Shown in pieces: positions 1-64,000 of a DNA stretch of 64,000 bases; position 1 is the first letter of the stretch; each line of letters begins with the position of its first letter. The notes under the pieces are model-generated. The model was not told the origin of the DNA and searched no databases. It worked only from the letters and a program-made list of their open reading frames with translations. The position numbers were made by a program, and so were the translations under genes. This DNA is from an uncultured Actinomycetota bacterium (GTDB taxonomy: Bacteria > Actinomycetota > Acidimicrobiia > Spongiisociales > UBA4744): positions 123,693-187,692 of the forward strand of contig CAVQSB010000007.1 of assembly GCA_963715305.1 (NCBI GenBank), written 5' to 3'.

Positions 1-1720
1 AAAGAACGTACCCTCGTGCGGGGGAAGCAGTCCGACCGACTCGGCTCGCTCGTGGATGAGATCCAGATCGCTGTGATCGCCGGGTCCGTGGAGGCCCATG
101 TCGAACACGCCGAACGAAACCTGGCGCAAGGTGTTCAAGGCCACGTTGAGATGGCGCGCCCGCACGAGATCGTCTACCAGTTCCTTCGGAATGGACTCGC
201 CGGTTCGATAGTGCCGGGCGAATTGCTGCAACACCTCCGGCTGCCAGCACCATTCCTCCATGATCTGGCTGGGTGCCTCAACGAAGTCCCACTCGGTGTT
301 GGCACCGGAGAAGCGTGAGAACCGGGCTCGCGTGAGAGACATGTGGAGAATGTGCCCGAATTCGTGGAAAAGGGTTTCGACCTCGGTGTGCTGCAGCAGA
401 GCCGGCTTGTCCGCGGTTGGCTTGGTCAGGTTGGCCACGATGGCCGAAACCGGGCGGTGATACGTCCCATCCGGGTCCCTGGTGTCCCGGGTACAGCGGA
501 AAGGCGGCTGCGTGGCTGAACTTGCCCTCGCGGGGGAACAGGTCGGCATAGAAATACGCGAGATGCCGACCGCTGTCGGCATCGAGAATCTGATACAACA
601 GCACCTCTTCATGCCATGCTCGGGCTTCGACCACCGGTTGGTAGGTGAGACCAAAAACCTCAGCGGTGAGATCAAACATCCCGGCGATGACGTCTTCGAG
701 CATGAAATACTCGGCCACCTGATTGGGGTCTAACCCGAATTCCCTTTTTCGAATTTGCGTGTCGTAGTAGCGCCAGTCCCACGATTGGATTCTTTTCGAT
801 CCCGTGTCGCGGGCGAGCATGTCGGCCATCACTGCGATTTCGGCCATTCCTGCTTTGGAAAGCGGTGGGATCAATTCCGCATAGAACCGCTCAACGGCCT
901 CCGGGTACTTCGCCATCTTCTCTTCCATCTGATAGTGGGCCCAGGAGTCGAGCCCGAAGAGTTGAGCGATGCGCTCTCGTGCTTCGACCGCTTCTTCGAG
1001 AATCGGCCGGTTGGCGTCCACGGCACGACTGCTGAACTTGAAGGAAAGCGCCTCTCGAAGGTCGCGCCGTTCGGCCTGCTCCATGAACGGGACAACATGG
1101 GGGTAGGCCATGGTTACGCGCAAGGCGCCGTCGGTGCCCGGATCCAAACGCTCGAGGTAATCGTCGGGTAGGCCGGACAAGTCCTCTCGTTGGACCTCCA
1201 GGTAATCCTCGTACTCGGCAATGTTGCGTTGGAAGGCCACTTCGAGTTCAACGAGTCGCTCGCGCAGGAGCTGGACTTCGGCACGATCCTCCGGGGAGAG
1301 TTCATGCCCGGCCCGGCGGAAGTCTCGGAGCAGGAAGGCAACCAGACGTTCTGGTTCGCCTTCGAGTTGCTTCGCCTCGTCCGTCTCTGAGTATTCCTTG
1401 ACGGCGGCGAACAAGTCGGGTCGGAAGCTGAGCTCGACCTGCCATTTCTCGAGCCGCTCTTCGGCTGCGCGGGCCGCTTCCCGCACTTCTTCATCCGGGT
1501 GCACGTTGCCCAGGAAAGGCCCTTGTCCATATGCGTCCTGGAGGGCAACGGAGATATCCTCGAGAGGCTGGATCGTGTTCTTGAATGAGCGCGGCTCACC
1601 GGCGGCAATCAGGGAGCTGATGACTCGCTCGGCTTCGTTGATGGCATCGGCAACGATTTCGGTAGCGGTTGCGGCGGTGATCAGTGAGTAATCGACGAGC
1701 ATGAATGAAGAACCATACAC
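1..1720 (-). CDS. M3-family zinc metallopeptidase (oligopeptidase/Dcp-like); start codon at 1720, C-terminus runs off the window start; split by one frameshift near 465-480
   Basis: ORF 278..1720 has an M3-like N-terminal and middle region. The HEFGH zinc motif is encoded at 352-366 (revcomp ttccacgaattcgggcac) in a different frame. It is followed by M3 C-terminal sequence (EAPSQIMEEWCWQPEVL...) down to position 1. Confidence 0.8.
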
Positions 1721-2070
1721 CGGGCGGTCGCCCCGTCAGTAGTCGCCGGCATGGGGAACCCCGCCTCAAGTTGCTCCGATCCCGGACCGATTCCATTGCA
1801 GGTGTGGCTGTTGTCAATCCTCGGGATCGGCGCACTGGTTGGCTTGGCACGTGCGATGGTCTGGGGTGGACATCAGATCTGGCGCAGCACCGCCGCCGTT
1901 CGCCTCGAACGCCGGCTGAATCAGGTCGACGTGCTGGAGCTGGATCGCGCCTTTGCCCGAATCCAGCGCGATGTCCTTTTCGGGGACTGATTTCGCCTGG
2001 AGCCACAAGGTCGGTCCTGGGCCTCCTCGACTGCTCGGGCGGCGGGGTCCTTTGCACTAGGTTCCTCTGC

Positions 2071-2841
2071 ATGGAAACAGATCTTTCGGGCAAGGGTGTT
2101 GTGGTCACGGGTGGCGCAGGCGGCATCGGTCAGGCCATCGTCAGGGCATTCGCACGCGAAGGGGCACGGGTTGGCGTTCACTACCGCACGTCCCGTCCGG
2201 CCGCAGAAAGCCTGGCGGAGGAAGTCGGTGGGGTGGCTCTCGGTGCCGACTTGCGCGTCGAAGCCGAAGCAGACGAGCTCATTCCGCGGGCGCTGGCGGC
2301 CCTCGGCCGGGTCGACGTGGTCGTCGCGAATGCCGGCGTTTGGCCGACGGCCGACGCACCGATCTGGGAGCTCTCGCTGGAGCGCTGGAGGGAAACCCTC
2401 GACGCCAATCTGACGGCGACGTTCTTGACCGCCAGGGGTTTCCTTCGCCACGCCGCCACGACCCGGCAGGGAAATCTCGTAATGATCGCGTCGACGGCGG
2501 GCGTATTCGGCGAGGCCGGACACGCCGATTACGCCGCAGCTAAAGGCGCCATCCTGTCGGGTCTCTTGTTGAGTGCCAAGAACGAGGCGACCCGACTCGA
2601 AGGGTCGGTGCGGGTCAATGTGGTGGCGCCGGGGTGGACCGTGACTCCGATGACTACCGAGGCCCGCCGGGATCCGGATCTGGAGGCCAGGGTGACGTCG
2701 ACGATGGCCCTGAAGAAGCTCGGCGCCCCTGAAGATGTAGCTGCGCAGGTGGTTGCCCTGGCTTCTGATCGTGTGTCCGGACACGTAACCGGTCAGATCG
2801 TGGTGGTGGCCGGTGGCATGGAAGGCCGGTTGGTTCCTTGA
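2071..2841 (+). CDS. SDR-family short-chain dehydrogenase/reductase (FabG-like)
   Basis: ATG 2071 (METDLSGKGVVVTGGAGGIGQAIV...). It has the TGxxxGxG Rossmann motif and a YAAAK catalytic motif. The N-terminal extension in the 1705 ORF is non-coding-like. Confidence 0.85.
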   Translation: METDLSGKGVVVTGGAGGIGQAIVRAFAREGARVGVHYRTSRPAAESLAEEVGGVALGADLRVEAEADELIPRALAALGRVDVVVANAGVWPTADAPIWELSLERWRETLDANLTATFLTARGFLRHAATTRQGNLVMIASTAGVFGEAGHADYAAAKGAILSGLLLSAKNEATRLEGSVRVNVVAPGWTVTPMTTEARRDPDLEARVTSTMALKKLGAPEDVAAQVVALASDRVSGHVTGQIVVVAGGMEGRLVP

Positions 2842-3274: not shown

Positions 3275-4856
3275 TTAACCCTTCCAGGTGACCGGATTGT
3301 CCGGGACGGGCACCGGCTGGCCGTCGATCCAGGTCGCCAGAACCCGGGTGTCCCGGAGTTCGTCCGGGGTGGCTTCGACCGGGTCCCGGTCCAAAACGAC
3401 GAAATCGGCGGCGCTACCGGCGGCCAGTGGTTCCGGTTCGCCCATGGCCCGGGCGGCACCGTCGGTGAAGAGGGCGAATGCACCCGTCCCGGTCAGGGCT
3501 TGTTCCGGAACCATCCCACCCCGGTCGCGGGCGGCCGCCATCCCCCACAAGGGATGGGGAGCCTCGACCGGACAATCTGAGCCTCCGGCCAACGGCACCC
3601 CGGCAGCCTGCAGCGAGGCCAGCGGGTAGGCGTTGCCGAGACGTTCCGGTCCGAGTCGCTTCTCCAGCCAAGCGGCCTCCGAGGCCATGAACGCCGGCTG
3701 TACTGAAGCTGTGACGCCGGAGGCGGCGAACCGGTCGATCAACCCGGCGTCGAGGATGGAGGCATGTTCGACCCGCAGATCGGCCGGGTCGGCACCTTCC
3801 GCCAGAAGCTCATCGAACAGATCGAGCACCCTGGCATTGGCCACGTCGCCGATGGCATGGATCGCGACCTTGCCGCCGAGTCGGAGGGCCGTCCTGGCGC
3901 GGGCACCGACTCGCGGTGCGGTCGAAACGCAGCGTGCCGTACTGGTCGGGCTGATCCGCGTAGGGGTACTGCAGGGCGGCCGTATGACCGCCCAGGCTCC
4001 CGTCGGCGAATTCCTTGACTCCGAGGAATTGCAGGCGGGGACCCGCGGCACGGATGTCGGCAGCTGCCTGTTCGAGCTCGGCCGGGTCTCCTGCAATGAC
4101 CAGCACCGGCATCTTGAGCGGGAGACGGTCGGCGATGGCCAACATGGCGCGGAGTTCGTTGCCGGTGTCACACCAGGGTCCCGTCCCGACCGCCAGGATG
4201 GCTCCAAGCGAAGTGACTCCCAGGCCGACCAGTCCGTGCATGGCTGCCAGGATCGCCTCCGGATCAGGATCGCTCGCCGGCCCGCTCAAAGCGGTAGCCA
4301 CTCGCTCGATGGCCGTCTCACGGAGGATTCCGTTGGGAACTCCGAATTCGTCTCGATCTAGGGTGCCACCGATCGGGTCAGTGGCCACCGAGCCGACACC
4401 GGCGTTGGCCAACGCCATGGTGTTGGCTACGGCGATATGGCCGCAGTACCGGTACACCAGGACGGGGCGGTCATCGACGGCCAGGTCGAGCTCCCGACGG
4501 GTCGGCAACCGTCGCTCCTGAAGTCCTTCATCATTCAACCGGATGGCGATGAGCGGGACTCCGGCTGGAAGCAGCGCGGCCGCCTCGCGAATTCGGGTGA
4601 GCACCTCCTCCAAATCGGCTGCCTCTTTCAACGTAGGTCGGGTGAGCGACAAGGCATAGGGAACGGGATGCATGTGGGCGTCGCGCAAACCCGGCGTGAT
4701 GACACTGCCTGGGAAGTCGTCCTCGGGGATTTCCGGCCTGCGCAAATCAGCGGCCTGCCCCACGGCGACTACCCGACCGTCGCTGATCAGGAGAGCGTCA
4801 CCGGGGAGATTCGATCCGATGCGGATCCGGTCGGCGACAACCAGTCGTTGTGTCAT
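3275..4856 (-). CDS. Amidohydrolase-family 3 metal-dependent hydrolase; frameshift near 3900-3950 splits it into ORFs 3810..4856 and 3275..4207
   Basis: N-terminal part has ...VITPGLRDAHMHP... The C-terminal part has GGKVAIHAIGD ... GSDCPVE, typical of amidohydrolase_3. The two ORFs overlap in different frames. Confidence 0.8.
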
Positions 4857-10065: not shown

Positions 10066-10750
10066 CTACTCCGTCTCGCACTCGGTGAGCGCCGCATCCA
10101 TAATGTCGATAGCCCGACCCAGTTCCTCCATCGTCGTGATCAAGGGGGGAATGAACCGGATCTCGTTGTCATCGGGTCCGCAGCCGATCACGAAAATTTC
10201 GGTTTCGAATGAGTACCGGGCTACGAAGCGTATCGCCTCTGCGTCCAGCTCGCGCGACTCGCGATCCTTGACCAGTTCGATCCCGATCATCAGACCAAGT
10301 CCCCGAACCTCACCATCGGTGCTGTGCGCGACCTGCATTTTGTTGAGCCGCTCAAAGGCGTGCGCCGACAGTAGCGAGCGTGAGGAAGGAGTCCCCCCAT
10401 GGTGTCGATGACGGCACCAACAGCGGCACAGGAGACCGGGTTGCCCCCGAAGGTATTCCGTGGGAGCCGACCAGCCATCGGTCCATGACCTCGGCGGACC
10501 CGCCGAGGATATTCGCTGTGAAGTTCAGAACTGCCGGCTCACTGTCCTTGACTGCGGCGGTGAGGTCATACCCGTGGAGATGCACTGAATCGGGGGGGGG
10601 GGGGGGGGGGGAATCGGATCGGACGCGGACTTCGATGGTGTCGCCTTGTGATACTTCCGCTCGTCGGACACCGCCCTCGACTGCACCACCCCGGACTCGA
10701 TAGCGACGTCGGTTCTGGTGTGATGCCTGTGCGGCAACCTCGACCGACAC
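10066..10750 (-). pseudogene. Remnant of a class-III (PLP) aminotransferase C-terminal ~230 aa, at least two frameshifts, N-terminal ~200 aa missing; contains poly-G tract
   Basis: Fragments in three frames: ...ILGGSAEVMD, ...TFGGNPVSCAAVGAVIDTMGG and ...FERLNKMQVAHSTDGEVRGLGLMIGIEL. Frame changes sit at C6 (10393-10398) and C5 (10444-10448) runs. Sequence 10612-10795 has no aminotransferase similarity. Confidence 0.6.
10592..10611. repeat. 20-nt poly-G homopolymer flanked by direct repeat gaatcgg
   Basis: The sequence is ctgaatc-G20-aatcggatcgg. On the minus strand it would encode PPPPPP. Confidence 0.9.
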
Positions 10751-13639: not shown

Positions 13640-15816
13640 TCACCCCATGCGGCGGGGGAGGGCGGTTCGCCACACGGAAGTCGCCTCTTTCAGGCTGACG
13701 AACGCTTCGCCCAACCGGATCTGATCTCCACCGAAGGTCCCAATGCGATGGATGGGCACTCCCGCTTTCATTGCCAAAGCCGCCACGGAGTCGGCGTGTT
13801 CCGGATCAACCGCAGCAATGAGTCGGTGGGGATCTTCAGCGAACCAGTTACCGGTCCATTCGGTGGTGACCCCGACACCGGACATCATGGCTACCTTGGC
13901 GACGGCCATTCCCAGGCCGCCTGTGGAGAGGTCGTGCAAGACAGGGGTCATGTCGGTGGTGGCCAGTTGGGTGGCCAGGCTCGTGAGGCGAATGGCCATG
14001 ACCGGGTCGGGCTCTGACGGACGGCCGCCGATCGTTTCCTCCACCACCTTCTGAAAGACGGTCCCGGCCACGTCGGTGGAGGTGGTGGGTCCGAGCAGCC
14101 ACAAGTCCATGCCGGAAGCTGCCCGGTCCAGACGCGGCGGATGTTCCGGGTACGGATCGGCCAGGCCGATCAGCCCGACGATCGGCGTTGGATAGATATC
14201 GACCCCATCCGTCTCGTTGTAGAAGGAGACGTTGCCGCCAACGACCGGTATCGCGAGGTGCTCACAAGCCTCCGAGATACCGTCGATCGTTTCGGAGAAC
14301 TGCCACATGACCTCGGGTTTCTCCGGATTCCCGAAGTTGAGGTTGTCGACGACGGCCATAGGCCGAGCCCCGGTCACAGCTACGTTGAGTGCAGCCTCGT
14401 AGACGAGGCGGGCACCGCCGCGCCGTGGATCCAGGTAGCAGCGACGACCATTACCGTCTGTCGTCCCGGCCAGCGCCTTCGTCGTTCCCTTGATACGCAG
14501 CAACGTGCCGTCGTGTCCCGGACCGATCACGGTGTTGAGGAACAACATGTGGTCGTACTGCTCGTAGACCCAGGCCGGGTCGGCCAGCGACGGGTCATCC
14601 AGAAGTGTCAACAATCCGGCTGCCACATCCGGTTGATCAACCGGCCGATTTCGCGCCCACACTTCATCGAGCCAATCCGGCCGCCGGAGAGGTCGGTGGT
14701 AGACCGGGGCATCCTCCGACAGCGACGCGGCCGGGACTTCTGCGACCAGCTCACCTCGTTCGAAGACCCGGAGCAGGCCGCCGGAGGAGACCGTCCCGAC
14801 GCGCTGACGCGTCGATTTCCCATTTGGCGGCGACGGCCAGGACTTCGTCGACGTCGGCGGGCGCAACGAACGCCATCATGCGTTCCTGCGATTCGGACAT
14901 CAGGAGTTCGGCCGGCGTCATGCCCGGCTCTCGCACATGAACTCGTCCCAGATCGACCTCCATGCCCATTCCCGATTTGGCGGCCGGTTCGGAGGTGGCG
15001 CAGGACAAGCCCGGCTGCTCCCAGGTCCTGAATGCCAACGACCAGGCCCCGCTCGTACAGTTCGAGGCACGCCTCGATCAGCTTCTTCTCCTCGAAGGGG
15101 TCGCCCACCTGGACGGACGGGCGTTTGGCCGTGCCGGCATCGTCGAAGCTCGCTGAGGCGAGGACGGAGGCGCCGCCGATACCGTCCCGTCCGGTGGCGG
15201 AACCAAGGAGAACAGCCTCGGTGCCTGCACCTCCCGATTCGGCAAGTACGAGTTGCTCGCGCCGGAGGATGCCGAGGGCCATCACGTTGACCAGCGGGTT
15301 GCCTGCGTAGCAATCCTCGAAGGCGATTTCACCGCCGACGGTCGGCACCCCTACCGCGTTTCCATATCCGGCGATTCCCGCGACGACGCCGGCCAGCAGG
15401 TAGCGGTTGTGAGCATCGTTGAGCGACCCGAAACGGATCTGATCCCATACGGCGATGGGCCTGGCTCCCATCGTGAACACATCGCGAAGAATGCCCCCCA
15501 CACCGGTGGCCGCACCCTGGTGAGGTTCGACGAACGACGGGTGATTGTGGGACTCGATCCGGAAGGCGGCCAGCCAGCCGTCGCCGAGATCGATGACACC
15601 GGCATTCTCGCCGGGACCGACCACCACCCACGGTGCCTCGGTGGGGAACCGCCCCAGGTGGGGACGGGAGGATTTGTACGAGCAATGCTCGGACCACATG
15701 ACCGAATACATGGCCAACTCGGCGTCCCGGGGAGGGCGGTCGAGGATGTCGCACACCGCCGCGTACTCGCCGTCGGTCATCCCGAGCGCCCGGTGGAGGG
15801 GTGTTTGGTCAGACAT
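13640..15816 (-). CDS. purL: Phosphoribosylformylglycinamidine synthase II (PurL); split by at least 2 frameshifts (~14795-14870 and ~14995-15040)
   Basis: ORFs 14608..15816, 14751..15038 and 13640..14866 together give a full-length PurL (…SEHCSYKSS…, …GLSCATSE…KWEID…, …VAEVPA…). Confidence 0.85.
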
Positions 15817-16508
15817 ACGCGGCGGTCATGCTCATGGCAAACGATTCCATCAGCACACGGCCGTCGGCCGACCCGAGCACCTGCTCGATGGCCCGCTCCG
15901 GATGCGGCATCAGACCGGCGACGTTGCCTGCGTCATTCGTGATGCCGGCTGTGTTGCCGAGCGATCCGTTCGGGTTGGCCTCGTCGGAGACCTCGCCCTG
16001 CCGGATCCGAATAGCGCAGCACGATTCGGCCGGAGCGGTCCATGCGGGCGAAGGTCGAAGGGTCGGTCGTATAGCTTCCCTCGTACGAATTGAGCGGCAG
16101 TTCGAGGACCTGTCCGATCCGGGCCGCCCGCGTCAAGATGGAGTCGGTCGAGGTGACCCGGAGATGAACCGGCCGGCAGATGAATCGGAGCCCGGCATTC
16201 TGCAGCAGAACTCCCGGTAGGAGACCGGCTTCGCAGAGGATTTGAAATCCGTTGCAGATACCGAGGACGGGGACACCCTTCGCGGCCAGACGTTCTACCT
16301 CTTTCATGACGGGTGAGAATCGGGCGATGGCACCGGTCCGGAGGTAGTCGCCGTGGGCGAAACCGCCCGGGAGAACGATCCCCGCGAAGGCACTCAGGTC
16401 GGTTTCGCGGTGCCAGACCAACTCGGCGTCAATGCCGACGGATGCCAGGGCATAGACGCTGTCGTGTTCGCAGTTGGTCCCCGGGAATACGACCACGGCC
16501 GCCTTCAC
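15809..16508 (-). CDS. purQ: Phosphoribosylformylglycinamidine synthase I, glutaminase subunit (PurQ); frameshift near 15990-16040
   Basis: GICNGFQ catalytic Cys. The C-terminal ...[30 protein letters not shown]... is in another frame. Its stop overlaps the purL ATG (ATGTCTGA). Confidence 0.85.
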
Positions 16509-16747
16509 TCCTGAACCACCACCTCGAAGTCTTCCATGACCGGATTGGCCAGCAGACGTTCACACATCGCTCGAACCTCAGCCTCAACGGCGTCGGGGTC
16601 GGTGCCCTGCACTTCCAGTTCGATGGTGCGATTGATCCGAACCTTCCCGACGTTCTCGTAGCCGAGGTCGCGTAGCGCTCGCGCCACGGTGGTTCCCTGT
16701 GGATCGGCAATGTCCGGGCGGCGGCGTATGTGAACCGTGACCTTCAT
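16505..16747 (-). CDS. purS: PurS subunit of FGAM synthase
   Basis: 80 aa (MKVTVHIRRRPDIADPQGTTVARALRDLGYENV...). Confidence 0.85.
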   Translation of the reverse strand: MKVTVHIRRRPDIADPQGTTVARALRDLGYENVGKVRINRTIELEVQGTDPDAVEAEVRAMCERLLANPVMEDFEVVVQE

Positions 16748-17627
16748 GCCGTGCCCGCCAGGTAGTCGTCGAATGGCCTGCCGACGATCCGCTCGTAGGC
16801 CTCCACGTAACGAGCCCGCGTACCGGCGATTACCTCGGCCGGGAGGCGAGGAGGCGGTGGGGAGTGGTCCCATCCGGTCGAGTCGAGCCAATCGCGCACG
16901 TACTGCTTGTCGAACGAAGGGACGGTCGGCCCGGCTCCCACTGGTCGACCGGCCAATAACGCGAGGAGTCGGCGAGTGAGTACCTCGTCGATCAGGACGA
17001 GGTCGCCCCCGACATGACCCGAATTCGAACTTGGTATCCGCCAGGATCACGCCCCGTCGGGCAGCGAACGTCGGAAGCTCGCAGGTAGATGTCGATCGAT
17101 CGGCGGCGCAACTCCTCGTACAGAGGCGTGCCGAGTTGCGTCCTCGCCTCGGCTTCCGTCAGGTTCTCGTCGTGGCCGGAGGCTGCTTTCGTGGCAGGTG
17201 TGAAGATCGGCGCCGGCAGTTGGTCGGCCATCTGGAGCCCGGCCGGGAGATGCTCGGTGGTCGGCCCGCCCCCGGCCCGGTACTCGCGCCAGGAAGATCC
17301 GTAGAGGTAGCCGCGCACGACGCATTCGACGGGAATGACGTCGGCTCTACGGACGATCATTGCCCGGCCCGCCAGCTCCGACCGCTGCTCATCGGTGATT
17401 CCGGAGAGGACGCTCAGGTCGCCGTCGATCATGTGATGCGGAACGTCCAGATAGTCGAACCAATGCAACGAGAGGCCGGTCAGCACACGGCCTTTGTCGG
17501 GGATCGGGTCGTCGAGGATGACGTCGTAGGCCGAGATGCGGTCGGTTGCGACGAAGAGCAGCCGGTCATCGTCGATCCGGTAGATCTCTCGGACTTTCCC
17601 CGATCCAACGTGGTCGAACGCCAGCAC
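16744..17627 (-). CDS. purC: SAICAR synthetase (PurC); at least 3 frameshifts (~16920-17060)
   Basis: Pieces: 16992..17627 (N-terminal two-thirds), ILADTKFEFG in ORF 16505..17050, and 16744..16956 (PSFDKQYVRDWL...EAYERI). Confidence 0.85.
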
Positions 17628-19152: not shown

Positions 19153-19942
19153 TCATCGGCTCGCAGCGGTATGGAAGCTGTGCGGAGCTAGGACGTCGCC
19201 CGCAACCCATGCAACATCGTCCGGCACTCTATCCGAGATGAGCACACTGCCCCGACCCACGGTAGACAGGGCGGAGTATCCGGAGTTGCCATCGATCAAG
19301 AGCCAGTTGCCGTCCGGTGAGAAACCAAGCGGGCTCCCCGAGATCTCGGCGACAACACACGCACCTCCGGCCAGCGCGCCACACACCGATTCCAGGGCAA
19401 GCGGAGAGGCCAGGACAACCGTGATCGGACCGTTGGGACGGTCGAGCTGAGCCGCCAGAAGTTCGCCGCCCGGCCCGGCATCGGGGTCTGCGAGGATCCG
19501 GCCGCCGGTGATCGGTTCGGTGGACGTGTACACCGACCACTTGTACCAGGTGATGGAGGGGGCGACGGGGAAGAAGGGCGTAGTGAGGAGCGGGCTGTCG
19601 CCCGGCACCTGCCAGATCTGTGCCGAACCGACGTCGTCTGTTGCAAGAACGAAAAGGGTTCGCCGTACCACCCCGACCGCCAGGATGCGCTCGGCATCCA
19701 GGTCGGCGGCGGTGAGCACGGTGTTGATCCCCGCTTCCGGTAGGGAGGGTCTGAATCGCCGAGCCGTCCGGCGTTACATGAAAGACTGTTGCCCCAAGGG
19801 TGCTCAAGGAGCTTCCCTGGGCGACGGTTGCGAAGAGGCCGGCGTCCGGCCCGAAGAGAATGGAGCCGCGGTCGGTTTCGAGGTACCAGCGCGTTGCCTC
19901 CAGCTCACTGGTGGTGAGGGCTTCCCCGTCGCCGGGGCTCAA
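19153..19942 (-). CDS. PD40/TolB-like beta-propeller repeat segments (frameshifted ORFs 19229..19942 and 19153..19719); probably C-terminal continuation of the 21624 gene
   Basis: Repeats of the VTPDGS / FSPDGNWL type. The overlapping ORFs are in different frames. Confidence 0.4.
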
Positions 19943-20091
19943 TGCGACGGCCGGCTATCCAGGCGGCCCCCCGCTCGCAACTGAAGCGTTGTGAGGTTTC
20001 CGAGGAACCTCGCGGCGCATGGAGGTTGAGTGGATTCGCCAGATACGACCGGTCGAGCGGGCTCACCGGCCGCCACGGCAAGAAACGACCG

Positions 20092-21624
20092 TCAATGTCG
20101 GCCGGGGCAATCGTTGCCTGCCGTTTCCGGCGAAGAAGGCTCTCGGATCCGTTCATCGGTTCTGCGGGTCATTGCGCCGTTGCGCAGTTCGACCAAACTC
20201 GGATGTGACGCAGGGCAGGGTGAGCGATCGGCGAGATGGCCGGATCGTACGACGCGTAGCCGACCGAGGATTTCATCACTTCCTCCCAGCATCGTTGCCG
20301 AAGCACGTTCCGGGTCGCCGGACCAGACCTGCAGCCCGCTGGAGTCCATCCAGTACAGACCGCTTCCGTCTCCCGACCAGGTGAAGCCCTGGGCCGGTTC
20401 GGTGGTGAGCAGCTGGCGAGTTGTACCGATCATGGACAGCACGGTCAAACCGTCGTTCCCATCCGGTCCCACCTGCCCCCGCACCGCCAGGTACCGCTTG
20501 AGGGGATCAAAAGCCCCCTCCAGTTGGAGAACCGAACCAGACCCGGACAGATCATTCGCGAAAGGGTCGAGAAGGTCGTCCCACCGGCGCACCACCCGTC
20601 CGGCCAGGTCGCGTAGCTCGAGACCTGCGCTGCCCCAGGCAGCTACCCGGGTATTCGAAACGGCGATCGCTCGTCCCGGCATCGACGTCCGGCTCACGCT
20701 GTTGGTGGCGAGATCCCAGAGGTAATAGCCACCCTGAAAGGCGTTGAGGGCCAGGAGAGACGAGTCGGGTGACCAGGCGAGGGACGCGATGGCTTCCACC
20801 GCGGTCGCCGCCGAGTCCCGGGGTGAGGTGAGTTCGAAGGACGGCGACCCCGCGGAATCGAGATTGGCGCCGATGGTCCAGACGAAGGGAACGCCCGTCG
20901 CATCGATCATGGCCAACCGGGTGCCGTCGGGCGACAGCAAAGGGGGCATGCTCTCCGACCCGGGCCAGAGCAGCAAGGCTGTTTCCTCGGCCCCCGGTCC
21001 GGATCCGATGAGGACCACCCGTTGCCCGGCCCGATCGACGCCGACCAGTCGTCCGTCGGGCAGGGCATCGACGATCACTGTGTCCGGCCCGATGTTGAGC
21101 AAGCCGGGCGTCAGTGATGGTCCGAAGAGCGGCTCCGGTCGGCTGGATGAGAACGAGAACCCGCCCACCCAGGTGCCCGAGGGAGGCCGCCACACATCCC
21201 GGGAGCTACCGGGTGCAGGCACGGTTGTCGTCGTTTGGGCAGTGATGGGAGGGGTCGTCGGGGTCTCGGCTTCGGGTTCCAGGCCTGAAGGTCCGGTGAG
21301 AACGGAGAGGTAGATGATGCCGCCGACCACGATTGCGGCGATGGGGGCCCACCGACCCGGTGCAAGTGGACGCTGGCGACCTCCCGGTTTCTCAACGTGT
21401 CCGGGCAGATCCGCGCCGGACGGTGGCGCCACGACCGGAACCGGTTGGGGAGGCGGGGGCCGTTGGTCGGGTTCGGTGGGCGGGTCGGTCGCGATCTCGT
21501 TGGCCCGGTCCTCGTGGAGTGGTGCAGCCTGGCGGTCGGACGGACGCCAGGTTTCGTTCGTGCAGGTTGGGCAGAGTGGAGATTCCACCGGGGTGTCGCA
21601 TACAAAGCAATAGCGATCTGCCAT
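20092..21624 (-). CDS. Zinc-ribbon (MADRYCFVCDTP...CPTC) - TM helix - Thr/Pro linker - PD40-like beta-propeller protein (N-terminal part; frameshift(s) near 20100-20250)
   Basis: ATG at 21624. There is a TM helix (WAPIAAIVVGGIIYLSVL). WSPDSS/WSGDGS repeats follow. The annotated ORF's first 50 aa upstream of MADRY look non-coding. Confidence 0.6.
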   Translation of the reverse strand: MADRYCFVCDTPVESPLCPTCTNETWRPSDRQAAPLHEDRANEIATDPPTEPDQRPPPPQPVPVVAPPSGADLPGHVEKPGGRQRPLAPGRWAPIAAIVVGGIIYLSVLTGPSGLEPEAETPTTPPITAQTTTTVPAPGSSRDVWRPPSGTWVGGFSFSSSRPEPLFGPSLTPGLLNIGPDTVIVDALPDGRLVGVDRAGQRVVLIGSGPGAEETALLLWPGSESMPPLLSPDGTRLAMIDATGVPFVWTIGANLDSAGSPSFELTSPRDSAATAVEAIASLAWSPDSSLLALNAFQGGYYLWDLATNSVSRTSMPGRAIAVSNTRVAAWGSAGLELRDLAGRVVRRWDDLLDPFANDLSGSGSVLQLEGAFDPLKRYLAVRGQVGPDGNDGLTVLSMIGTTRQLLTTEPAQGFTWSGDGSGLYWMDSSGLQVWSGDPERASATMLGGSDEILGRLRVVRSGHLADRSPCPASHPSLVELRNGAMTRRTDERIREPSSPETAGNDCPGRH

Positions 21625-21697
21625 GGGAAAAGGGTAGTGGGAGCGTCCGCCAAGCCCTGTGGGAGGTGCGAGCAGGGAGTGGAAGGTTTTTGGCGGG

Positions 21698-33821: not shown

Positions 33822-34834
33822 GAATCTTGTTGAGATCCGAGACCTGGTGAAGCAATTTCCGGTGAAGGCCGGATTGCTGCAGCGGCAGGTGGCGACGGTC
33901 AACGCGGTAGCCGGAGTCGATCTGGATATTCACAAGGGTGAGACCATCGGATTGGTCGGCGAGTCCGGTTGCGGGAAGACGACTCTGGGACGGGTCCTGG
34001 TCCGGCTGCTCGAGCCGACCTCAGGCACCGTTCGGTTCGACGGCGAGGATATGACCCACCTGCAAGGGCAAGGCTCTCAAGCCGTTCCGTCGTCGGGTTC
34101 AGATCATCTTCCAGGATCCCTACGGATCGCTCGATCCACGCACCCAGGTCGGTGACGCCATCGCTGAGGGTCTGCGACTGCACGGTGTCGATGACCGGGA
34201 CGAACGGCGCCAGCGGGTGACCGAGATGCTCGAGCTGGTCGGTCTTGAGTCCCGTCATGCGGGTCGTTATCCGCATGAGTTCTCCGGTGGTCAACGGCAG
34301 CGGATTGGCATCGCCAGGGCATTGATCCTGAAGCCGGATCTCGTGGTGGCGGACGAGCCGGTCTCGGCGCTCGACGTTTCCGTGCAGGCGCAGGTGCTCA
34401 ACCTTCTGAAGGAGCTGCAATCGGAGCTCGATCTGACGTTGCTTTTCGTGGCTCACAACCTGGCGGTAGTCGAGCACATCTCTGATCGGGTGGCGGTGAT
34501 GTACCTGGGCAAGATCGTCGAGCTGACCGATCGAGACACCCTGTACCGCAATCCCTTGCATCCCTATACGGAAGCCCTGTTGTCGGCCATCCCGATCCCC
34601 GATCCCGACCGGCCCCGCAACCGGCAGATCTTGCAGGGTGATGTTCCGTCTCCCTTGAACCCGCCCCTCGGTTGCCACTTCCACCCTCGCTGTCCGATAG
34701 CCAGGATCGGGCTGTGCGATGTCGAGGAACCGCAACTGCTTCCACTCAACGACGAGGTCGACCATATGGCTTCATGTCACCTCCGCACCGGTGACCACCG
34801 CCGGTTCGACCCGCGCCGGCCCATCAAGCGGTGA
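33814..34834 (+). CDS. ABC transporter ATP-binding protein (DppF/OppF-like); ≥2 frameshifts 34060-34220
   Basis: The N-terminus is in ORF 33802..34155 and the C-terminus in 34217..34834. The oligopeptide ABC C-terminal zinc-ribbon-like motif CHFHPRCP is present. Confidence 0.8.
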
Positions 34835-35411: not shown

Positions 35412-36708
35412 TCAGATCTCGAGCGTTTCGAGTCTTTCGAACACGATCGCCGAGTTGGCGAGGGATCTTTCGATCGAGAAGCATGACCTGAGTCGTTCCG
35501 ATGTCAGATCGACCGCCGGATCTTTCTTCAAGAGATCGAGCAGATGCCCACCACCGTCCCACGACGCCAGGGCATTGCGCTGCACGATCCGGTAAGCATC
35601 ATCGCGGCTCGATCCGTCCTCAACGAGGGCCAGAAGCACGGCCTGACTGAAGACCAGGCCGCGGGTGCCTTCGAGATTGGCCAGCATGCGGTCGTGGTCG
35701 ACCTCGAGATGTTCGATCAACCCCGCGAACTTGACGAGCATGTAGTGCAGGACATGACAGGCGTCCGGGATGATCACTCGCTCGGCCGAGGAATGGCTGA
35801 TGTCGCGCTCGTGCCAAAGAGCAACGTTCTCGAGCCCCACCTGCCGCGTAGCCCCGGAGGAGTCGTGCCATCCCGGTCATTCGTTCCGAGAGGATCGGGT
35901 TGCGCTTGTGCGGCATGGCCGACGATCCCTTCTGCCCGGGCCTGAACGCTTCACGAGCTTCCCGCACCTCCGACCGCTGCAGGTGGCGGATCTCGGTGGC
36001 AAATCGCTCGATCGAAGCACCCGTCAACGCAACGGCCTGCAGGAACTCGGAGTGCCGATCGCGGTGGGTCACCTGTGAGGACACCGGTTCGATGCCCAAC
36101 CCGAGGTGCTCGCAGACGTAGCGTTCGAGGCGGGGTGGTGTGTGAGCATAGGTCCCCACCGCGCCACTGATCTTGCCAACGGCTACGGCCCGGCGGGCCC
36201 GGGTGAGCCGTTCGTGATCCCTGGCCAGCTCAAAGGCCCACGTAGCGAGCTTCAAGCCGAAGGTGGTCGGCTCCGCCCAGATGCCGTGGGTACGTCCCAG
36301 CATGGCCGTGGCGCGATGCTCCAGTGCTTTCCCCTTGACAACTTCGAAGAGTCTTTCGGTTCCGCCGAGCAGCAATCCGGCCGCTTCGTTGAGCAGCACG
36401 CCCTGCGCAGTATCGAGGACATCGGACGAGGTGAGCCCGTAATGGACCCATTCGCCGCCCGTGGCCGTGTTCTCGGCGAGCAGATCGACGAATGCCGCCA
36501 GATCATGGTTGGTTATCTCTTCGCGCGCTCTCCAGGCGACGGGATCGACCGGGTCGGCGCGCCGGACCGCGGCGGCCGCCTCCGGGGGAGCCACCCCGAG
36601 TTCGCTCCATCCCTCGACGACCAGAGCTTCGACTTCTTGCCAGACCGCCAGCTTGCGTTCTTCGGACCAGACGGCCGCCATGTCCGGAAGCGTGTAACGA
36701 GGGATCAT
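35412..36708 (-). CDS. purB: Adenylosuccinate lyase; frameshift near 35830-35880
   Basis: MIPRYTLPDMAAVWSEE... N-terminus (B. subtilis-type PurB). It has the SSxMPHKxN signature. The C-terminal 140 aa are in ORF 35412..35840. Confidence 0.85.
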
Positions 36709-53915: not shown

Positions 53916-54623
53916 ATGACCGACCGTACCCGGCGGATCCTCATTGTCGAGGACGAAGCGAGCCTGGCAGATTCCATCCGGTATAACCTCGAACGCGAAG
54001 GCTACGAAGTGATGGTCGCCTCCGACGGGCGCAATGCCGTTCGGATGGCACGAGAGCAACCGCCCGACCTCGTATTGCTCGACCTGATGCTGCCGACGAT
54101 GTCGGGCCTCGATGTGTGCCGGTCCCTGCGGGCCGAGTCGAATGTACCGATCATCATTGTTACGGCCAAGGATGGCGAGGCGGACAAGGTGGCAGGCCTC
54201 GAGTTAGGAGCCGACGACTATGTCACCAAACCATTCGCGATGCGGGAACTGATTGCCCGCGTCGGAGCCAATCTGCGCCGGGTGACCATGATCGAACCTG
54301 CTCCCGGCCCGGATGAAGACGAGATACTCGAAGGCGGCCCGATTCGGCTGAATATCTCCCGTCACGAGGCGACCGTGCGAGGAAGAGAGGTCAGTTTTCG
54401 CCCGAAAGAGTTCGAACTGGTCTCAGCTTTCTTGAGCCGGATGGGCCGTCTCCTCAGCCGGGATTTCCTGATTGACGAGGTATGGGGCCCCGGACACTAC
54501 GGCGATATGAAGACTCTGGATGTCCATATCCGTCGTATCCGCAAGAAGATCGAGGAGGACCCGCATCGGCCTGTACATCTGGTGACGGTGCGGGGCCTCG
54601 GATACAAATACCTCGATGGCTGA
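53916..54623 (+). CDS. OmpR-family response regulator (RegX3/PhoP-type)
   Basis: ATG 53916. It has a receiver domain (ILIVEDE...DLVLLDLMLP) and a winged-helix C-terminus. Confidence 0.85.
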   Translation: MTDRTRRILIVEDEASLADSIRYNLEREGYEVMVASDGRNAVRMAREQPPDLVLLDLMLPTMSGLDVCRSLRAESNVPIIIVTAKDGEADKVAGLELGADDYVTKPFAMRELIARVGANLRRVTMIEPAPGPDEDEILEGGPIRLNISRHEATVRGREVSFRPKEFELVSAFLSRMGRLLSRDFLIDEVWGPGHYGDMKTLDVHIRRIRKKIEEDPHRPVHLVTVRGLGYKYLDG

Positions 54624-56345
54624 GCGACCCCGCAAGACCCTCGTCGGCCGTCTCTTGACGTGGTACGCGGTCACCGTCGTGATGCTGCTCGTCGTACTCG
54701 GTCTGCTCCTCAACAGCGTTCTCAAGGTCCAGTTGATCGACGATCTCACGCAGTCGCTGGAGTCTCAGGCATTGCTCTTGCGAGCGATCGTCGACTCCGA
54801 ACGCGACCTCGAAGGAGCGGTCTCCGACTGGGCCCGCGTCGAGAGCTTGCGGGTCACTGTGATCGACTCGAGCGGCACGGTCCTGGCCGACTCATCGCGC
54901 GACCCGCGAGGAATGGCGAACCATGCCGATCGGCCGGAAGTTCGCGCCGCACTTACTGGGGTGACGGGCGTCTCATCGAGGATCAGTGAAAGCGTCGGCG
55001 TGGAATACCGCTACGTTGCAGTTCCCCCCAACAATGACGGATGGATCGTCAGGGTGGCGGAACCGGTGAGCGTGATCGGCGAGCGTCTCCAACGGCTGCG
55101 ATTGGCGATAACGTGGGCCGGGATAGGGGCGGCCCTGCTTGGACTCGGCGCTGTGTGGCTGGGTGCCCGAAGGATCGTTCGGCCCATACGGCAGGTGACC
55201 GAATCGATTGTGAGGATGGCCTCCGGAGACGGTCCGGCAAAGATCGACGGAGCCGACTCGGCCGAATTGCACGCCATGGCCGGGGCCGTTGACCGGATGG
55301 CGGACGAACTGTACAAACGAGCCCGGCTGAGTGAAGAAGATCTCCGATCTCGGGAAGGGATCCTCGACGTACTCGATGAAGGCGTCATCCTGATTTCGAT
55401 CGACAACGAAGTTGCGTTTGCCAACAGCTGGGCGCACACAACGCTGGGAAGCCGCTCCGGGCTGGCCGAGCTGCCCGGACCGCTGCAGGAACTCGCCGGG
55501 TCGGCTCGATCCGCCTCCGATCCCGTTCACCGAGAATTCGTGTTCGGCGTTCCCGGCCGTCGTCTGGCCGCGACGGCCGTGTTGCCCGACGCGGAGGGAA
55601 GTGTGCTGCTTGTGCTGCAGGACGTGACAGAGGCCGCCCGGGTGGAGGCTATGAGGCGGGACTTCGTAGCCGACGCATCGCACGAATTGAAGACCCCGAT
55701 TGCCGCCATTCGAGCGGGCGCCGAGACCATCGTCCGGGCCATTGACGAGGACCCGGCCGCAGCCAGGACGTTTGCCGAACAGGTGGAAGCCGACTGCGAT
55801 TCGCTTGGGGCGGATCGTGGTAGATCTGCTCGATCTTTCGCGCCTCGAGACAGAGGAGCTGGTTTTCGAAGGGGTGCGGTTGGACCAAATCGTTGTTGAT
55901 GAAGTAGCGCGCCTCGATGATGCCGTCGACGAGGCGCGCGTGGAGTTCAGTCTGGATGTGGTATCGGTGACGGTTTCGGGAAGTGGACCCGATCTGCGTC
56001 TGGCCACTCGCAATCTCCTCGATAATGCGCGACGGTACGCGGCAGGCGGCCGGGTCGTGGTCGGAGTCCGGCAGGTGGGCGAGCGAGGCCGTCCTCGAAG
56101 TAGCCGACGATGGTGTGGGGATCCCGAGTCGCGAGCTGCCCGCGAATTTTTGAGCGTTTCTACCGCGTCGATGTTGCCCGATCGCGGCACACGGGTGGGA
56201 CCGGCCTCGGGCTGGCGATTGTCAAGCATGTGGCAGAACGCCACGGCGGCCGTGTGGAGGTCGAGAGTGAGCTGGGGGCAGGCTCGACGTTCCGTCTGGT
56301 ACTTCCGCTCACCGGAAAGATGTCGACGTCAGTTCCGAGGTCTGA
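54616..56345 (+). CDS. Sensor histidine kinase (SenX3/PhoR-type); ≥2 frameshifts (~55800, ~56090); 3' end approximate
   Basis: TM, HAMP, PAS-like region and H-box HELKTP in ORF 54616. The N/G boxes are in ORFs 55700 and 56110 ([19 protein letters not shown]). The long continuation of ORF 56110 is antisense shadow of the 56383 gene. Confidence 0.7.
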
Positions 56346-56382
56346 CTTCCGGTTCCGGTCGAGAGGGAGCCTGATGGGGCTC

Positions 56383-57057
56383 TTATTCGCGGTCCGCTTT
56401 GGCCTCGTCGTAGTAGTCGAGACGATCGATCGGCATGACCAGCGATGTGAGGATATTCATGAGATGAGCTGTGATCCGTTTCAAGTATCGATAGAGCAAC
56501 GCCCGCGGCACCGCCTCGCGACCCGGCTTGTCGGTCTGGAGTTGCTCATCGACGAGTTCATCGAATTCATCTTGCAGATCGTCGCCGCCCTTGAGGAGGG
56601 CGTGGGCCATTTCGAGATCTTTCTCGCCGAACACCCGGGCGGTCTCCCCGATGAGCTTGGAGATTCGATCCCGGTAGCGGGTCAACACACCAATGTCCTC
56701 GGCACCGGAGAGATCGATCCCACTGTTGGCGATATCCCAGATGTTCTTCGAGTAGTCGCCGATCCGTTCTGCATCCTTGACGACGCTCATCGACGCCAGT
56801 ACGAGGGGGATGTCGGCGGAGGTACCCCGCACGCTGACGTGGACGACCAACTCCCGCCGCACGGCCCGCTCTGCCTTGTTCACGCCCTTGTCGGTCTTGC
56901 GGATGTCCTTGCCGACCAACGACGGGTCGGTCCCGCCGATCAGGGCATTGATGGCGGTGTCGAAGGTGTGCCGGTCGTCGAGGATCATCTGGCGGATCTG
57001 CGCTTCGATCCGCTCGAGTTGCGCGTCTCCACCTCCCCGGAAGAAGTCAAGCACCAT
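56383..57057 (-). CDS. PhoU-like (DUF47 / PhoU_div) regulator of Pi transporter
   Basis: 224 aa with a TIGR00153-like sequence. It lies downstream of the Na/Pi symporter gene. Confidence 0.7.
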
Positions 57058-59147: not shown

Positions 59148-59188
59148 ATTGCTGCATTGCTGATTGCTGATTGCTGATTGCTGATCGC
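59146..59188. repeat. (TGATTGC)n heptanucleotide tandem repeat, ~6 units (tgattgc tgcattgc tgattgc tgattgc tgattgc tgatcgc), abutting the stop codon of the 59192 gene in a locally AT-richer segment
   Basis: The repeat is read directly from the sequence. Confidence 0.8.
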
Positions 59189-59191
59189 TGC

Positions 59192-59804: not shown

Positions 59805-60552
59805 CTACTGCTGCAACACTGCTTCCAGGAATTTCTTGGTTCGCTCGTGCTGAGGGTTGAGCAGCACGTCGTCGGGGTGGCCATCCTCAACAACCACACC
59901 TTCGTCCATGAACACCACACGGTCGCCGACCTGTCGGGCAAAACCCATTTCGTGGGTGACCACCATCATGGTCATGCCTTCCTCGGCCAGTTTGCGCATG
60001 ACATCGAGAACTTCGCCCACCAGCTCAGGATCGAGGGCGCTGGTCGGCTCATCGAAGAGCATCATGTCCGGGTCCATCGAAAGTGATCGGGCGATGGCCA
60101 CTCGCTGCATCTGACCGCCTGAGAGGTTGATGGGGTACTCGTCGATCTTGTCGAGCATGCCAACTCTTTCCAACACAGCCCTGGCTTTCTCGTCGGCCTC
60201 ATGCTTCCGATCTATTCAGGACCTTCCGCTGGGCAATGGTCAGATTCTGCATGACCGTCAGGTGCGGGAAGAGGTTGAACTGTTGGAAGACCATGCCGAT
60301 GCGGGCGCGGACTGCGTCCACGTCGGTCTCGGGATCGGTGAGATCGATGCCCTCAACCAGCACCTTGCCGGAAGTAGGGACTTCCAGGAGGTTTACGCAT
60401 CGCAACAACGTCGACTTGCCCGACCCGGATGGTCCGATGACACACACCACCTCGCCGGCTTTGACCTGGAAATCGATGCCGCGCAGCACTTCGAGATCGC
60501 CGAAATACTTGTGGAGCTCCAGGATCTGAATGGGAGGAACGTTCTTATCCAT
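59805..60552 (-). CDS. Polar amino-acid ABC transporter ATP-binding protein (GlnQ-like); frameshift near 60185-60200
   Basis: The N-terminal half is ORF 60199..60552 (GPSGSGKST). The C-terminal half is ORF 59805..60176 ([25 protein letters not shown]). The junction ...[23 protein letters not shown] is in shifted frames. Confidence 0.8.
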
Positions 60553-62186: not shown

Positions 62187-62374
62187 GACCCTTCCTCCTC
62201 ATGTTTGGTCGAGGGTCGGCCCTCCGACCGTTTCCCCTCTTCGGGATGTTAGGCGGATCGAAAAGGGCTTCCCAATGGGTGCGGGGGTTGGTCTATTCGC
62301 TCCAATCACTAATCTGGTGTTCATTGGCGCGGTTGTCCCGGTCGGCGGGCCATCGCTCGACCTGGGGTTGACCT

Positions 62375-64000
62375 GTGACCACAACCGACAACTTGCTCGC
62401 TCGTGTGACCGGTCCCGCCGATTTGCGGGATCTTGGTCCCGACCAGTTGACACAATTGGCCGGCGAGATCCGATCGTTCATGGTGGACGCTATCTCACGG
62501 ACCGGCGGCCATCTCTCGCCCAACCTCGGTGTCGTCGAGTTGACGCTTGCGCTGCATCGGGTTTTCGACAGTCCCACCGATCGCATCCTCTGGGACGTTG
62601 GCCATCAGGCATATGTTCACAAGCTGGTCACCGGTCGCCAGGATGAATTCGAGACGCTCCGCCAGTACCGGGGGATGACCGGATACCCGAGTCGAATCGA
62701 AAGCGAGCATGACTTCGTCGAGAACAGCCATGCTTCTACATCGCTGAGCTACGCCCTTGGCATGGCACTTGCCAAACAACGAGTCGGGGATGACAGCTAC
62801 ACGGTGGCGGTCATCGGTGACGGCGCCTTGACCGGTGGTATGGCCTACGAAGCCCTCAACCATATTGCGGTACTGCAGCCGCCCAGGCTGATCATTGTGG
62901 TGAACGACAACGGTCGCTCGTACGCCCCGACCGTCGGTGGTATTGCGGCGCTCGCCCACCTTCGGTTCGATCCACGTTACGAGTGGACCAAGAAGACGAT
63001 CGGCAAGCTGCTGCGCAGTATCCCCGCCATCGGCGAAGGAGCAGACGAACTAGCTCATCGTCTCAAGGAGTCCGTAAAGCAGCTGATCGAGCCGGGAACG
63101 GTGTTCGATGCGCTGGGCCTGAAGTACTCGGGCATTATCGACGGTCACGATATTCACGCGATTGAGGAGAATCTTGTTCACGCCAGGTCGTTCGATGAGC
63201 CCTCGGTGGTGCACATCATTACGGAGAAGGGTCGCGGGTATGAACCCGCCCTGAACAACGACGAGGACAAATTGCACGGTGTCGGCGCATTCGACGTCGA
63301 ATCCGGCCGCCCGGCCAAGTCGGAATTGAAGCTCACCAGCGTTGCCGGTCAGGCTGTATTGCATGCGGCTCGGGAACGGGACGATCTGATCGCGATCAGC
63401 GCAGCCATGGTTTCACCGACCGGCCTTTCGGCGATGGCCGCGGAGTTTCCCGACCGGGTTATCGACACCGGCATTGCCGAACAACATGCCGTCACGCTGG
63501 CGGCCGGGCTGGCGATGACGGGGATGCGGCCCGTCGTTGCCATCTATTCGAGTTTCCTGCAGCGAGCATTCGACCAGATCGTGACCGACGTTGCCATGCA
63601 CGATCTGCCGGTGGTTTTCATGATCGATCGGGCGGGGATCACGGGGCCGGATGGTGCCTCCCACCACGGCGCGTTCGATCTCTCGTACCTGCGGATGATC
63701 CCCAACATGACCATCGGTGCTCCGGCCGACGCCGATGAGCTGTGCGGCATGCTGGCGACCGCTTGGGACACCGTCGGCCCCATGGCCATCAGGTTTCCGA
63801 AAGGCGCCGCCGGCTCATTGCCCGGCGCTACCCACCGAGCCTCTCGAGGTGGGCGTGGCAGAAATGGTCCAGCAGGGTGAGGACGTGTTGCTGCTGGCTG
63901 TCGGCAGCATGGTCGAGCCGGCAGTGAAGGCGGCGGGGATGCTGGCCCAACAGGGGATCTCCTGTGGGATCGTCAATGCCCGGTGGGTGAAACCTCTCGA
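62375..64000 (+). CDS. dxs: 1-deoxy-D-xylulose-5-phosphate synthase, 3' partial (runs off window); frameshift near 63820-63850
   Basis: GTG start. GHxSTSxSxxxG, the TPP-binding GDG...N motif and a transketolase-like pyrimidine domain are present. After ...AIRFPKG the frame changes and the C-terminal domain continues in another frame to 64000. Confidence 0.85.

Follow-up and report, generated by a model that had tools for sequence, protein, structure and literature searches.

A public Acidimicrobiia metagenome contig in which 13 conserved genes are very probably split by single-base consensus errors

We analyzed a 64,000-nucleotide stretch of an Acidimicrobiia metagenome-assembled genome (MAG) contig (hereafter the window), and 13 otherwise normal genes in it are very probably split by uncorrected single-base consensus errors, which makes the damage an assembly artefact and not biology. 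Judging from sequence, the organism's real copies of these genes are almost certainly intact. The consensus of the source contig would carry single-base errors left uncorrected, which in 23 of 27 cases take the form of one extra base. Each such indel shifts the reading frame, so that a gene caller reports two to several overlapping fragments in place of one gene.

Results

Frameshifts in 13 conserved genes

Frameshifting indels, 27 in all, were located in 13 conserved genes through Pfam scans, frameshift-aware protein-DNA alignment, and a codon-usage model of the reading frame. The genes are those for an M3 peptidase and an amidohydrolase, purL, purQ, purC, a gene of 807 codons, dppC, dppD, dppF, purB, phoR, glnQ, and dxs. 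The window holds about 58 genes, and roughly one in four is mis-called as fragments. Frameshift-aware alignment of eight control genes against intact orthologues showed no event. In seven of the affected genes, namely those for the M3 peptidase and the amidohydrolase, purL, purQ, dppC, dppF, and glnQ, a single Pfam family runs on across two or three frames. In purB, the histidine kinase gene, and dxs, consecutive domains occupy separate frames or the ORF lacks the terminal domain. In each case, the ORF fragments are collinear pieces of one orthologue with a 1‒2-nt indel between them.

The frame switches of a codon-usage Viterbi model, which was used instead of a GC3 frame plot too noisy at 63% G+C, coincide with the split Pfam profiles. 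At gene borders, and also on antisense strands, the model gave spurious switches, which homology resolved. The switches at 23873/24003 and in the dppF region proved false, and further shifts near 1985, 13357, 23873, and 43422, together with a fourth dpp site, were dismissed as gene borders or model noise. A sequence-only reading had named the split genes and their sites, and the splits were found at the places named. Its figure of more than 20 split genes holds for sites but not for genes, which number 13 plus one remnant. Two sites each in purL and in the remnant agree with its list, whereas purC has four sites and not three, and dppC, dppD, and dppF together have three and not four.

Peptidase and amidohydrolase genes

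The M3 peptidase gene (1..1720, minus strand; its 3′ end lies beyond the window start) carries a 1-nt insertion at 475‒476, and the Pfam Peptidase_M3 match is divided between two frames (profile positions 1‒210 and 208‒345). The window has one base more at 476 than the relative L084, which encodes an intact 650-aa orthologue, and frameshift-aware alignment places the insertion at 475 with 94% identity. The amidohydrolase gene (Amidohydro_3; 3275..4856, minus strand) has a 1-nt insertion at 3911, where the profile is split into 7‒254 and 264‒471. The sequence GAC[T]CGC holds one base more than L084 here, and deleting base 3911 brings back the peptide FDRTAVGARAR, as in the 526-aa L084 protein. 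A 348-aa fragment of the amidohydrolase is present in the public record.

Purine genes and the 807-aa gene

In purL (13640..15816, minus strand), 1-nt insertions at 14804 and 15007‒15012 spread the Pfam AIRS_C match over three frames (3‒73, then 71‒140). The window shows one extra base at both sites against both L081 and L084; the orthologues are intact at 723‒724 aa, and the public record holds a 402-aa N-terminal fragment. The neighboring purQ (15812..16508, minus strand) has a 1-nt insertion at 16001‒16004, with GATase_5 positions 3‒193 and 199‒235 in two frames; the extra base is seen against L081 and, at 16004, by frameshift-aware alignment. The SAICAR_synt match in the main ORF of purC (16747..17627, minus strand) ends at profile position 159 of 233. 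DNA alignments with L081 and L084 contain gaps here, and frameshift-aware alignment resolves four events, namely insertions at 17069, 17016‒17020, and 16974 and a deletion at 16921. In purB (35412..36708, minus strand; orthologue of 437 aa), a 1-nt insertion at 35844‒35845, an extra base relative to L172, puts Lyase_1 and ADSL_C into two frames.

The most heavily affected gene is a conserved one with weak beta-propeller matches (19195..21657, minus strand), whose orthologues in L081 and L083 measure 807‒808 aa. It holds 9‒11 indels between 19738 and 20250. Protein-DNA alignment gives nine events (19738, 19949, 20008, 20043, 20083, 20157, 20200, 20210, and 20250), and DNA alignment with L081 gives 11 non-compensating gaps in about 510 bp. 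The mismatch rate within this cluster is 7‒14%, not above that of the flanks, so there is no excess of substitutions.

Transport, signaling, and dxs genes

The three dpp genes lie in tandem on the plus strand, and each has one extra base relative to both L172 and L174. In dppC (31805..32768; orthologue of 320 aa), the insertion at 32141 leaves OppC_N and BPD_transp_1 in different frames. In dppD (32765..33821), it falls at 33558‒33566; removing one base yields a 351-aa protein of orthologue length, and a 346-aa fragment stands in the public record. In dppF (33802..34834), the insertion at 34062‒34066 divides ABC_tran into 3‒51 and 90‒136 in two frames.

The gene for a PhoR-type histidine kinase (54616..56389, plus strand) has HisKA and HATPase_c in different frames, and frameshift-aware alignment finds three 1-nt insertions, at 55792, 56081, and 56139. 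A 572-aa JGI PhoR protein (P0254) aligns through frames +1, +2, +3, and +1 in turn. In the gene for a GlnQ-type ABC ATPase (59805..60552, minus strand), a 1-nt insertion in 60201‒60206 (GCA[T]GAG on the gene strand; event at 60204 by frameshift-aware alignment) splits ABC_tran into 1‒80 and 89‒137. Fourteen cluster mates of 248 aa align with residues 1‒116 and 116‒248 in adjacent frames, each half at up to 97% identity. The two ORFs share just 14 bp, and removing one base gives a 248-aa protein. Finally, dxs (62375..64000, plus strand; its 3′ end lies beyond the window) contains a 1-nt insertion at 63821, where the window has one base more than L166 and L088. The public record holds a 501-aa fragment, while the cluster mate P0236 has 624 aa and is intact in six short-read assemblies.

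Kind and distribution of the indels

The bias toward 1-nt insertions (23 of 27 events) is significant (binomial p = 3e-4), and DNA alignments to relatives show them as isolated +1 gaps within otherwise well-aligned coding sequence. At the skipped base, the run length was 1 at 14 of the 23 insertion sites, 2 at three, and 3 at six, and no event site lies in a homopolymer run of at least 4. The contexts of the 23 insertions are heterogeneous, and no shared motif or slippery sequence was found among them. A search of Rfam gave no matches.

The events are strongly clustered. Neighboring events were separated by less than 400 bp in 14 cases, compared with 4.05 ± 1.7 expected, a value reached in none of 20,000 permutations. 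Nine events fall within about 500 bp of the 807-aa gene, four within 150 bp of purC, and three within 350 bp of phoR. This clustering corrects a detail of the sequence-only reading, which had given roughly one indel error per 3 kb.

Relatives and the deposited record

The fragments in the window equal the public-record proteins of the deposited 270,197-bp contig (NCBI, ENA). Since the frameshifted fragments are the deposited contig's own products, the defect sits in the deposited assembly. Both sides of every shift retain orthologue-level identity (80‒97% to intact orthologues), and dN/dS is 0.095 upstream of the shifts and 0.111 downstream of them, compared with 0.140 for intact genes. Frameshift-aware alignment showed no in-frame stops in the 13 genes, and these contain no large deletions or insertion sequences, only lesions of 1‒2 nt.

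In short-read contigs of relatives (n = 10, 75‒98% identity; SPAdes NODE_, JGI Ga..., and Logan contigs), no frame switch occurred over about 72 kb, or about 24,000 aligned codons, and the orthologues are full length in all of them. Three sister assemblies with long-read-style "contig_" records (L082, L083, and L084), on the other hand, have 1-nt insertions of their own, all +1 and at other sites. The genes hit there are purF, purQ, lnt, cytC, and the 807-aa gene, and purF of L083 is broken into 295 and 197 aa. The sister assemblies have the accessions ERZ25039508, ERZ25039514, and ERZ25039600, and short-read assemblies available for comparison are ERZ25043434‒ERZ25043460.

A GTDB scan gave no relative above 64% PurM identity, and closer relatives were obtained through protein searches and cluster mates. 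The closest full-length proteins found across a shift site are 95‒97% identical. Our searches found no accurate assembly of the exact same strain spanning any site: 10 corrected variants of GlnQ, the amidohydrolase, and DppD, as an indel-free copy of the strain would encode, were absent from the protein collection in exact look-ups, and those for PurS and GlnP returned no record. The "2x" contig L085 is about 71% identical with many gaps and does not extend to phoR. A Logan contig of ERR12037370 encodes an identical Lnt, and its adjoining ORF agrees with the window.

Discussion

Origin of the errors

In low-coverage long-read MAGs, indels fragment gene calls, and metagenome bins of low coverage are hit harder (PMC9262707, PMC12007338). 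The IDEEL test quantifies such fragmentation in long-read (Nanopore or PacBio) assemblies and low-coverage MAGs, and tools such as Kastor correct it (PMC9262707, PMC12007338). The window resembles these cases in that genes found whole in accurate assemblies are broken up by single-base consensus indels, their fragments correspond to one orthologue, and sister assemblies of the same pipeline kind are affected too. It differs in the kind of error: those published occur chiefly at homopolymers and are often deletions, whereas here 23 of 27 are insertions, no event lies in a run of four or more, and the events are strongly clustered. We infer that the source is an assembly of long reads that had little polishing or low coverage. 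The patches would be local stretches where the consensus was drawn from very few or conflicting long reads, and they seem to reflect coverage dips or strain mixtures.

Strain mixture could also be the main cause of the artefact in place of low coverage, a possibility to which we give some weight but which we consider unlikely. The consensus would then write both strain alleles one after the other, turning polymorphisms into 1-nt insertions, and the patches would mark microdiverse regions. The insertion bias, the position of the errors outside homopolymers, and their patchiness are consistent with such a process, as is the co-occurrence of many near relatives in similar samples. At several sites, such as 3911 (GCG[A]GTC) and 60202 (GCA[T]GAG), the inserted base follows a third codon position with a synonymous alternative. 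However, chance alone would put about two thirds of slots next to a third position, and the exact place of a gap is ambiguous.

Improbable biological readings of the frameshifts

If the frameshifts were real, the genome would be in decay, as happens in lineages newly restricted to a host or otherwise relaxed, and the 13 genes would be young pseudogenes. The fragments do stand in the deposited record, and the neighboring aminotransferase remnant resembles a true pseudogene in its truncation and raised divergence. As in pseudogenes of reductive evolution, the frameshifted frames still resemble functional orthologues, a pattern that the remnant fits. The 13 genes, however, show purifying-selection dN/dS on both sides of the shifts, with the downstream value matching intact genes and thus no relaxed selection, and their lesions include neither in-frame stops, large deletions, nor insertion sequences. 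Decay also fits poorly with the 9‒11 indels in some 500 bp of one gene without an excess of substitutions, with the strong +1 bias, and with the same mode of error elsewhere in sister assemblies and its absence from short-read assemblies. Moreover, there is no bias to dispensable genes, and the core genes purL, purC, purQ, purB, and dxs would have to vanish simultaneously. We therefore regard decay of the 13 genes as very improbable.

Programmed +1 ribosomal frameshifting or transcriptional slippage, decoding the shifts at many genes, is less credible still. Most shifts are in the same +1 direction, as in prfB-type frameshifting, and in glnQ the shift coincides with a TGA stop (GCA TGA G), which is superficially prfB-like. 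Nevertheless, no motif, slippery sequence, or homopolymer is common to the 23 contexts, and the length over which the original frame continues without a stop past the shift ranges, by site, from 14 to more than 400 nt. Unlike in prfB, one gene can hold several shifts, at spacings of 10‒60 nt in purC and in the 807-aa gene, and no relative has a conserved shift site; in orthologues of 80‒97% identity, a single continuous frame encodes the same residues. That the extra bases are real and the lineage tolerates dozens of +1 shifts in core genes through pervasive recoding, whether by efficient +1 ribosomal frameshifting or by transcript correction and with no fixed motif, is equally hard to credit.

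Consequences for the record

While its biological interest is low, the finding is of value as a quality warning on a public MAG. Since the defect lies in the assembly and not in the biology, pseudogene calls and exact coordinates in this region are untrustworthy. The record would mislead on pseudogene counts, protein-family clustering, and fine coordinates, and calls of pathway completeness would also be wrong for purine synthesis, the DXP pathway, and peptide and phosphate transport. The fragments are already separate representatives in large protein collections. The same signature in three sister assemblies implies that the problem may extend to an entire batch of deposited assemblies, and homopolymer-focused polishers would miss non-homopolymer 1-nt insertions that occur in patches.

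A probable pseudogene among the artefacts

One locus seems to be different. Only the C-terminal third of a class III aminotransferase gene is present (10066..10505, minus strand), with 1-nt deletions at 10372 and 10455, two shifts beyond the 27 counted above. The gene is intact in relatives, where it encodes 425 aa. About 1 kb of L084 sequence is missing from the window at this locus, including the 5′ part of the gene (about 840 nt), and the remnant is 87% identical, compared with 92‒94% for adjoining genes. The truncation, the two 1-nt deletions, and the raised divergence suggest that the remnant is probably a genuine pseudogene whose two shifts are real decay. A blanket correction of the contig would consequently also be wrong. 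The sequence-only reading had called all the splits assembly errors and not pseudogenes; this is well supported for the 13 genes, given their intact orthologues, low dN/dS, and similarly affected sister assemblies, but probably does not hold for the remnant. It had also placed several shifts in short G/C homopolymers. The two gaps of the remnant map outside the C6 and C5 runs that it cited, and the C6 run at 10393‒10398 is identical in L084. Of the run sites that it named, only the one near 470, in the M3 peptidase gene, has its shift within a run, of three bases.

Frame breaks in 13 genes of the window

The window (63% G+C) combines a purine-biosynthesis neighbourhood with dpp, znu, pst/pho and gln transport operons, ppk and dxs; its 64 kb contain no tRNA genes, and an Rfam scan gave no match. 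PurM- and PurL-based searches place it in an uncultured member of the Acidimicrobiia, and exact look-ups assign its intact proteins to a single public contig (270,197 bp; NCBI and ENA).

Pfam scans of the window's ORFs show single families that start in one ORF and continue in another that overlaps it in a different frame. The Peptidase_M3 profile passes from 1-210 to 208-345 in the M3 peptidase, and Amidohydro_3 from 7-254 to 264-471 in the amidohydrolase, each over two frames; in purL, AIRS_C is divided into 3-73 and 71-140, and a third frame carries the second AIRS module. In purQ, GATase_5 is split across frames. Separate frames hold OppC_N and BPD_transp_1 in dppC, ABC_tran 3-51 and 90-136 in dppF, Lyase_1 and ADSL_C in purB, HisKA and HATPase_c in the histidine kinase (phoR), and ABC_tran 1-80 and 89-137 in glnQ. 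The C-terminal domain of dxs is not in frame. Frame changes from a codon-usage Viterbi model, trained on clean genes of the window, coincide with these break sites. A custom frameshift-aware protein-to-DNA alignment against the closest intact orthologues yielded 27 events, spread over 13 genes, against zero in eight control genes (purF, purM, lnt, purA, dppA, dppB, the Beta_propel gene and the Na/Pi transporter). The split genes listed in the sequence-only reading are borne out almost exactly, although purC has four sites rather than three and dppC/D/F three rather than four; its "more than 20 genes" are in fact over 20 sites, distributed among 13 genes and one remnant, out of ~58 genes.

Intact orthologues in relatives

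Comparison with close relatives found the affected genes full length in all short-read contigs: purL 724, purQ 232, purC 323, the large gene (19195-21657, minus strand) 807, dppC 320, dppD 351, dppF 339, purB 437, glnQ 248 and dxs 624 aa. The relatives include L084 ('contig_37416'; ~91% nucleotide identity, identical gene order), the SPAdes contigs L081 and L166 (sample ERZ25043460; 82-88%), the Logan short-read contig L172 (spanning dppABCDF, purB and purA) and the JGI contigs L086 and L088; L173 and L174 were likewise fetched as close relatives. A JGI PhoR of 572 aa shares 95% identity with the window's first kinase fragment and continues via frames +2, +3 and +1. In 14 GlnQ proteins of 248 aa, residues 1-116 and 116-248 match adjacent frames, each at up to 97% identity and with no residue lost. 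DNA alignments show lone single-base gaps within coding sequence that otherwise aligns well, and removing one base gives back orthologue length and local sequence in glnQ, the amidohydrolase and dppD. Exact look-ups gave no accurate assembly of the very same strain across any shift site; the single Logan contig whose Lnt is identical spans none. The N-terminal fragments are exact protein-collection entries, each from the 270,197-bp contig (purL 402, dxs 501, glnQ 117, dppD 346, kinase 427 and amidohydrolase 348 aa).

Evidence for assembly error rather than gene decay

Since dN/dS against orthologues is 0.095 upstream of the first shift and 0.111 downstream, compared with 0.140 in intact genes, the out-of-frame segments evolved under normal purifying selection. 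The affected genes, which take in purL, purQ, purC, purB and dxs, contain no in-frame stops or larger lesions. A coarse tblastn count gave 12 frame switches in the window, 2-3 at each locus of the sister 'contig_' assemblies L082, L083 and L084 (every one a +1 shift, at positions differing from the window's), and none in ten short-read contigs (~24,000 aligned codons). Since the sister loci carry +1 switches and the short-read contigs none, the error mode tracks assembly type rather than lineage. Finer alignment places single-base insertions outside homopolymers in all three sister loci, and the gene caller split purF of L083 into 295 and 197 aa. With this evidence we are highly confident that the 13 genes are broken by assembly indels and are not pseudogenes, as had been proposed, once counts, homopolymers and the remnant are corrected. 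There is no biological novelty here; the result serves as a quality flag for the deposited record and probably its sister assemblies.

Frameshifted core genes also occur in the public assemblies of L084 (purQ) and L082 (several), and L085 ('ctg337423_2x_l') is broken up into short ORFs; the quality problem probably affects the whole batch.

Error signature and possible origin

One extra base in the window accounts for 23 of the 27 events (binomial p = 3e-4), and two of the other four resemble 2-nt insertions in DNA alignment. Indels are known to fragment gene calls in long-read assemblies, above all in low-coverage metagenome bins (PMC9262707, PMC12007338). Those errors are mainly homopolymer-associated, whereas no event here lies in a run of at least 4; run length at the insertions is 1 at fourteen sites, 2 at three and 3 at six. 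The association with G/C homopolymers suggested earlier therefore fails: the C6 run (10393-10398) is the same in L084, the C5 run is the product of a substitution, and the gaps at this aminotransferase locus map to 10372 and 10455.

The events cluster, with nine in ~500 bp of the large gene (11 by DNA alignment), four in 150 bp of purC and three in 350 bp of phoR. Fourteen neighbour distances fall below 400 bp against 4.05 ± 1.7 expected, a value reached in 0 of 20,000 permutations. Substitution mismatch to L081 in the largest cluster is 7-14%, not above its flanks. Most likely, the contig would be a long-read-style consensus in which an extra base was written where supporting reads were few or conflicting. 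Coverage dips may have produced such patches, or strains living side by side may each have contributed an allele to the consensus; some inserted bases do follow third codon positions with a synonymous alternative base, but this placement would be frequent by chance alone.

A truncated aminotransferase gene

The class III aminotransferase, intact in relatives (425 aa), retains only its final ~440 nt (10066-10505, minus strand). At 10066-10785, ~1 kb of L084 sequence is replaced by ~280 bp and the 5' two thirds of the gene are gone, because of a real deletion or, alternatively, a mis-join at this locus. The sequence-only reading counted this remnant among the artefacts. Its two shifts are both deletions rather than insertions, and its identity is 87% against 92-94% for neighbouring genes. 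These sequence features and the truncation make a genuine, truncated pseudogene its best interpretation. L081 has an extra 354-aa gene at the equivalent position.

Gene content and small indels

A pstSCAB-phoU-phoB-phoR block (48900-56390) lies between the Beta_propel gene and a phoU/Na-Pi transporter pair. These are directly joined in L086, L088 and L166; compared with these three relatives, the entire phosphate operon therefore represents either an insertion or a rearrangement. The DUF3179, GATase and DUF547 genes (17676-19091 and 21742-23250), also in L083 and missing here in L081, are a gene-content difference among close relatives. purE and purD (36822-38551) separate purB from purA, which are adjacent in L172; the ~580-bp dppF-purB gap (34834-35414), with a 168-aa ORF lacking a Pfam match, has no counterpart there (spacing ~120 bp).

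The 598-aa multi-haem c-type cytochrome (8217-10013), with repeated CxxCH modules and Thr/Pro-rich linkers, has in-frame linker indels of 6-12 nt relative to relatives and is intact amid the surrounding errors. An 18-nt repeat (29058-29108, 2.8 copies) lies in the dppA signal/linker region, and a 7-nt tandem repeat, CTGATTG (59145-59190, 6.4 copies), between a HEM4-like gene and glnQ is not in L088 or L166. A 1-nt deletion at 1801 relative to L084 abolishes the ATG of a 63-aa ORF upstream of a short-chain dehydrogenase; this and the intergenic 1-nt indels at 6308, 6320, 8008, 8203 and 60556 are either errors or real variation.
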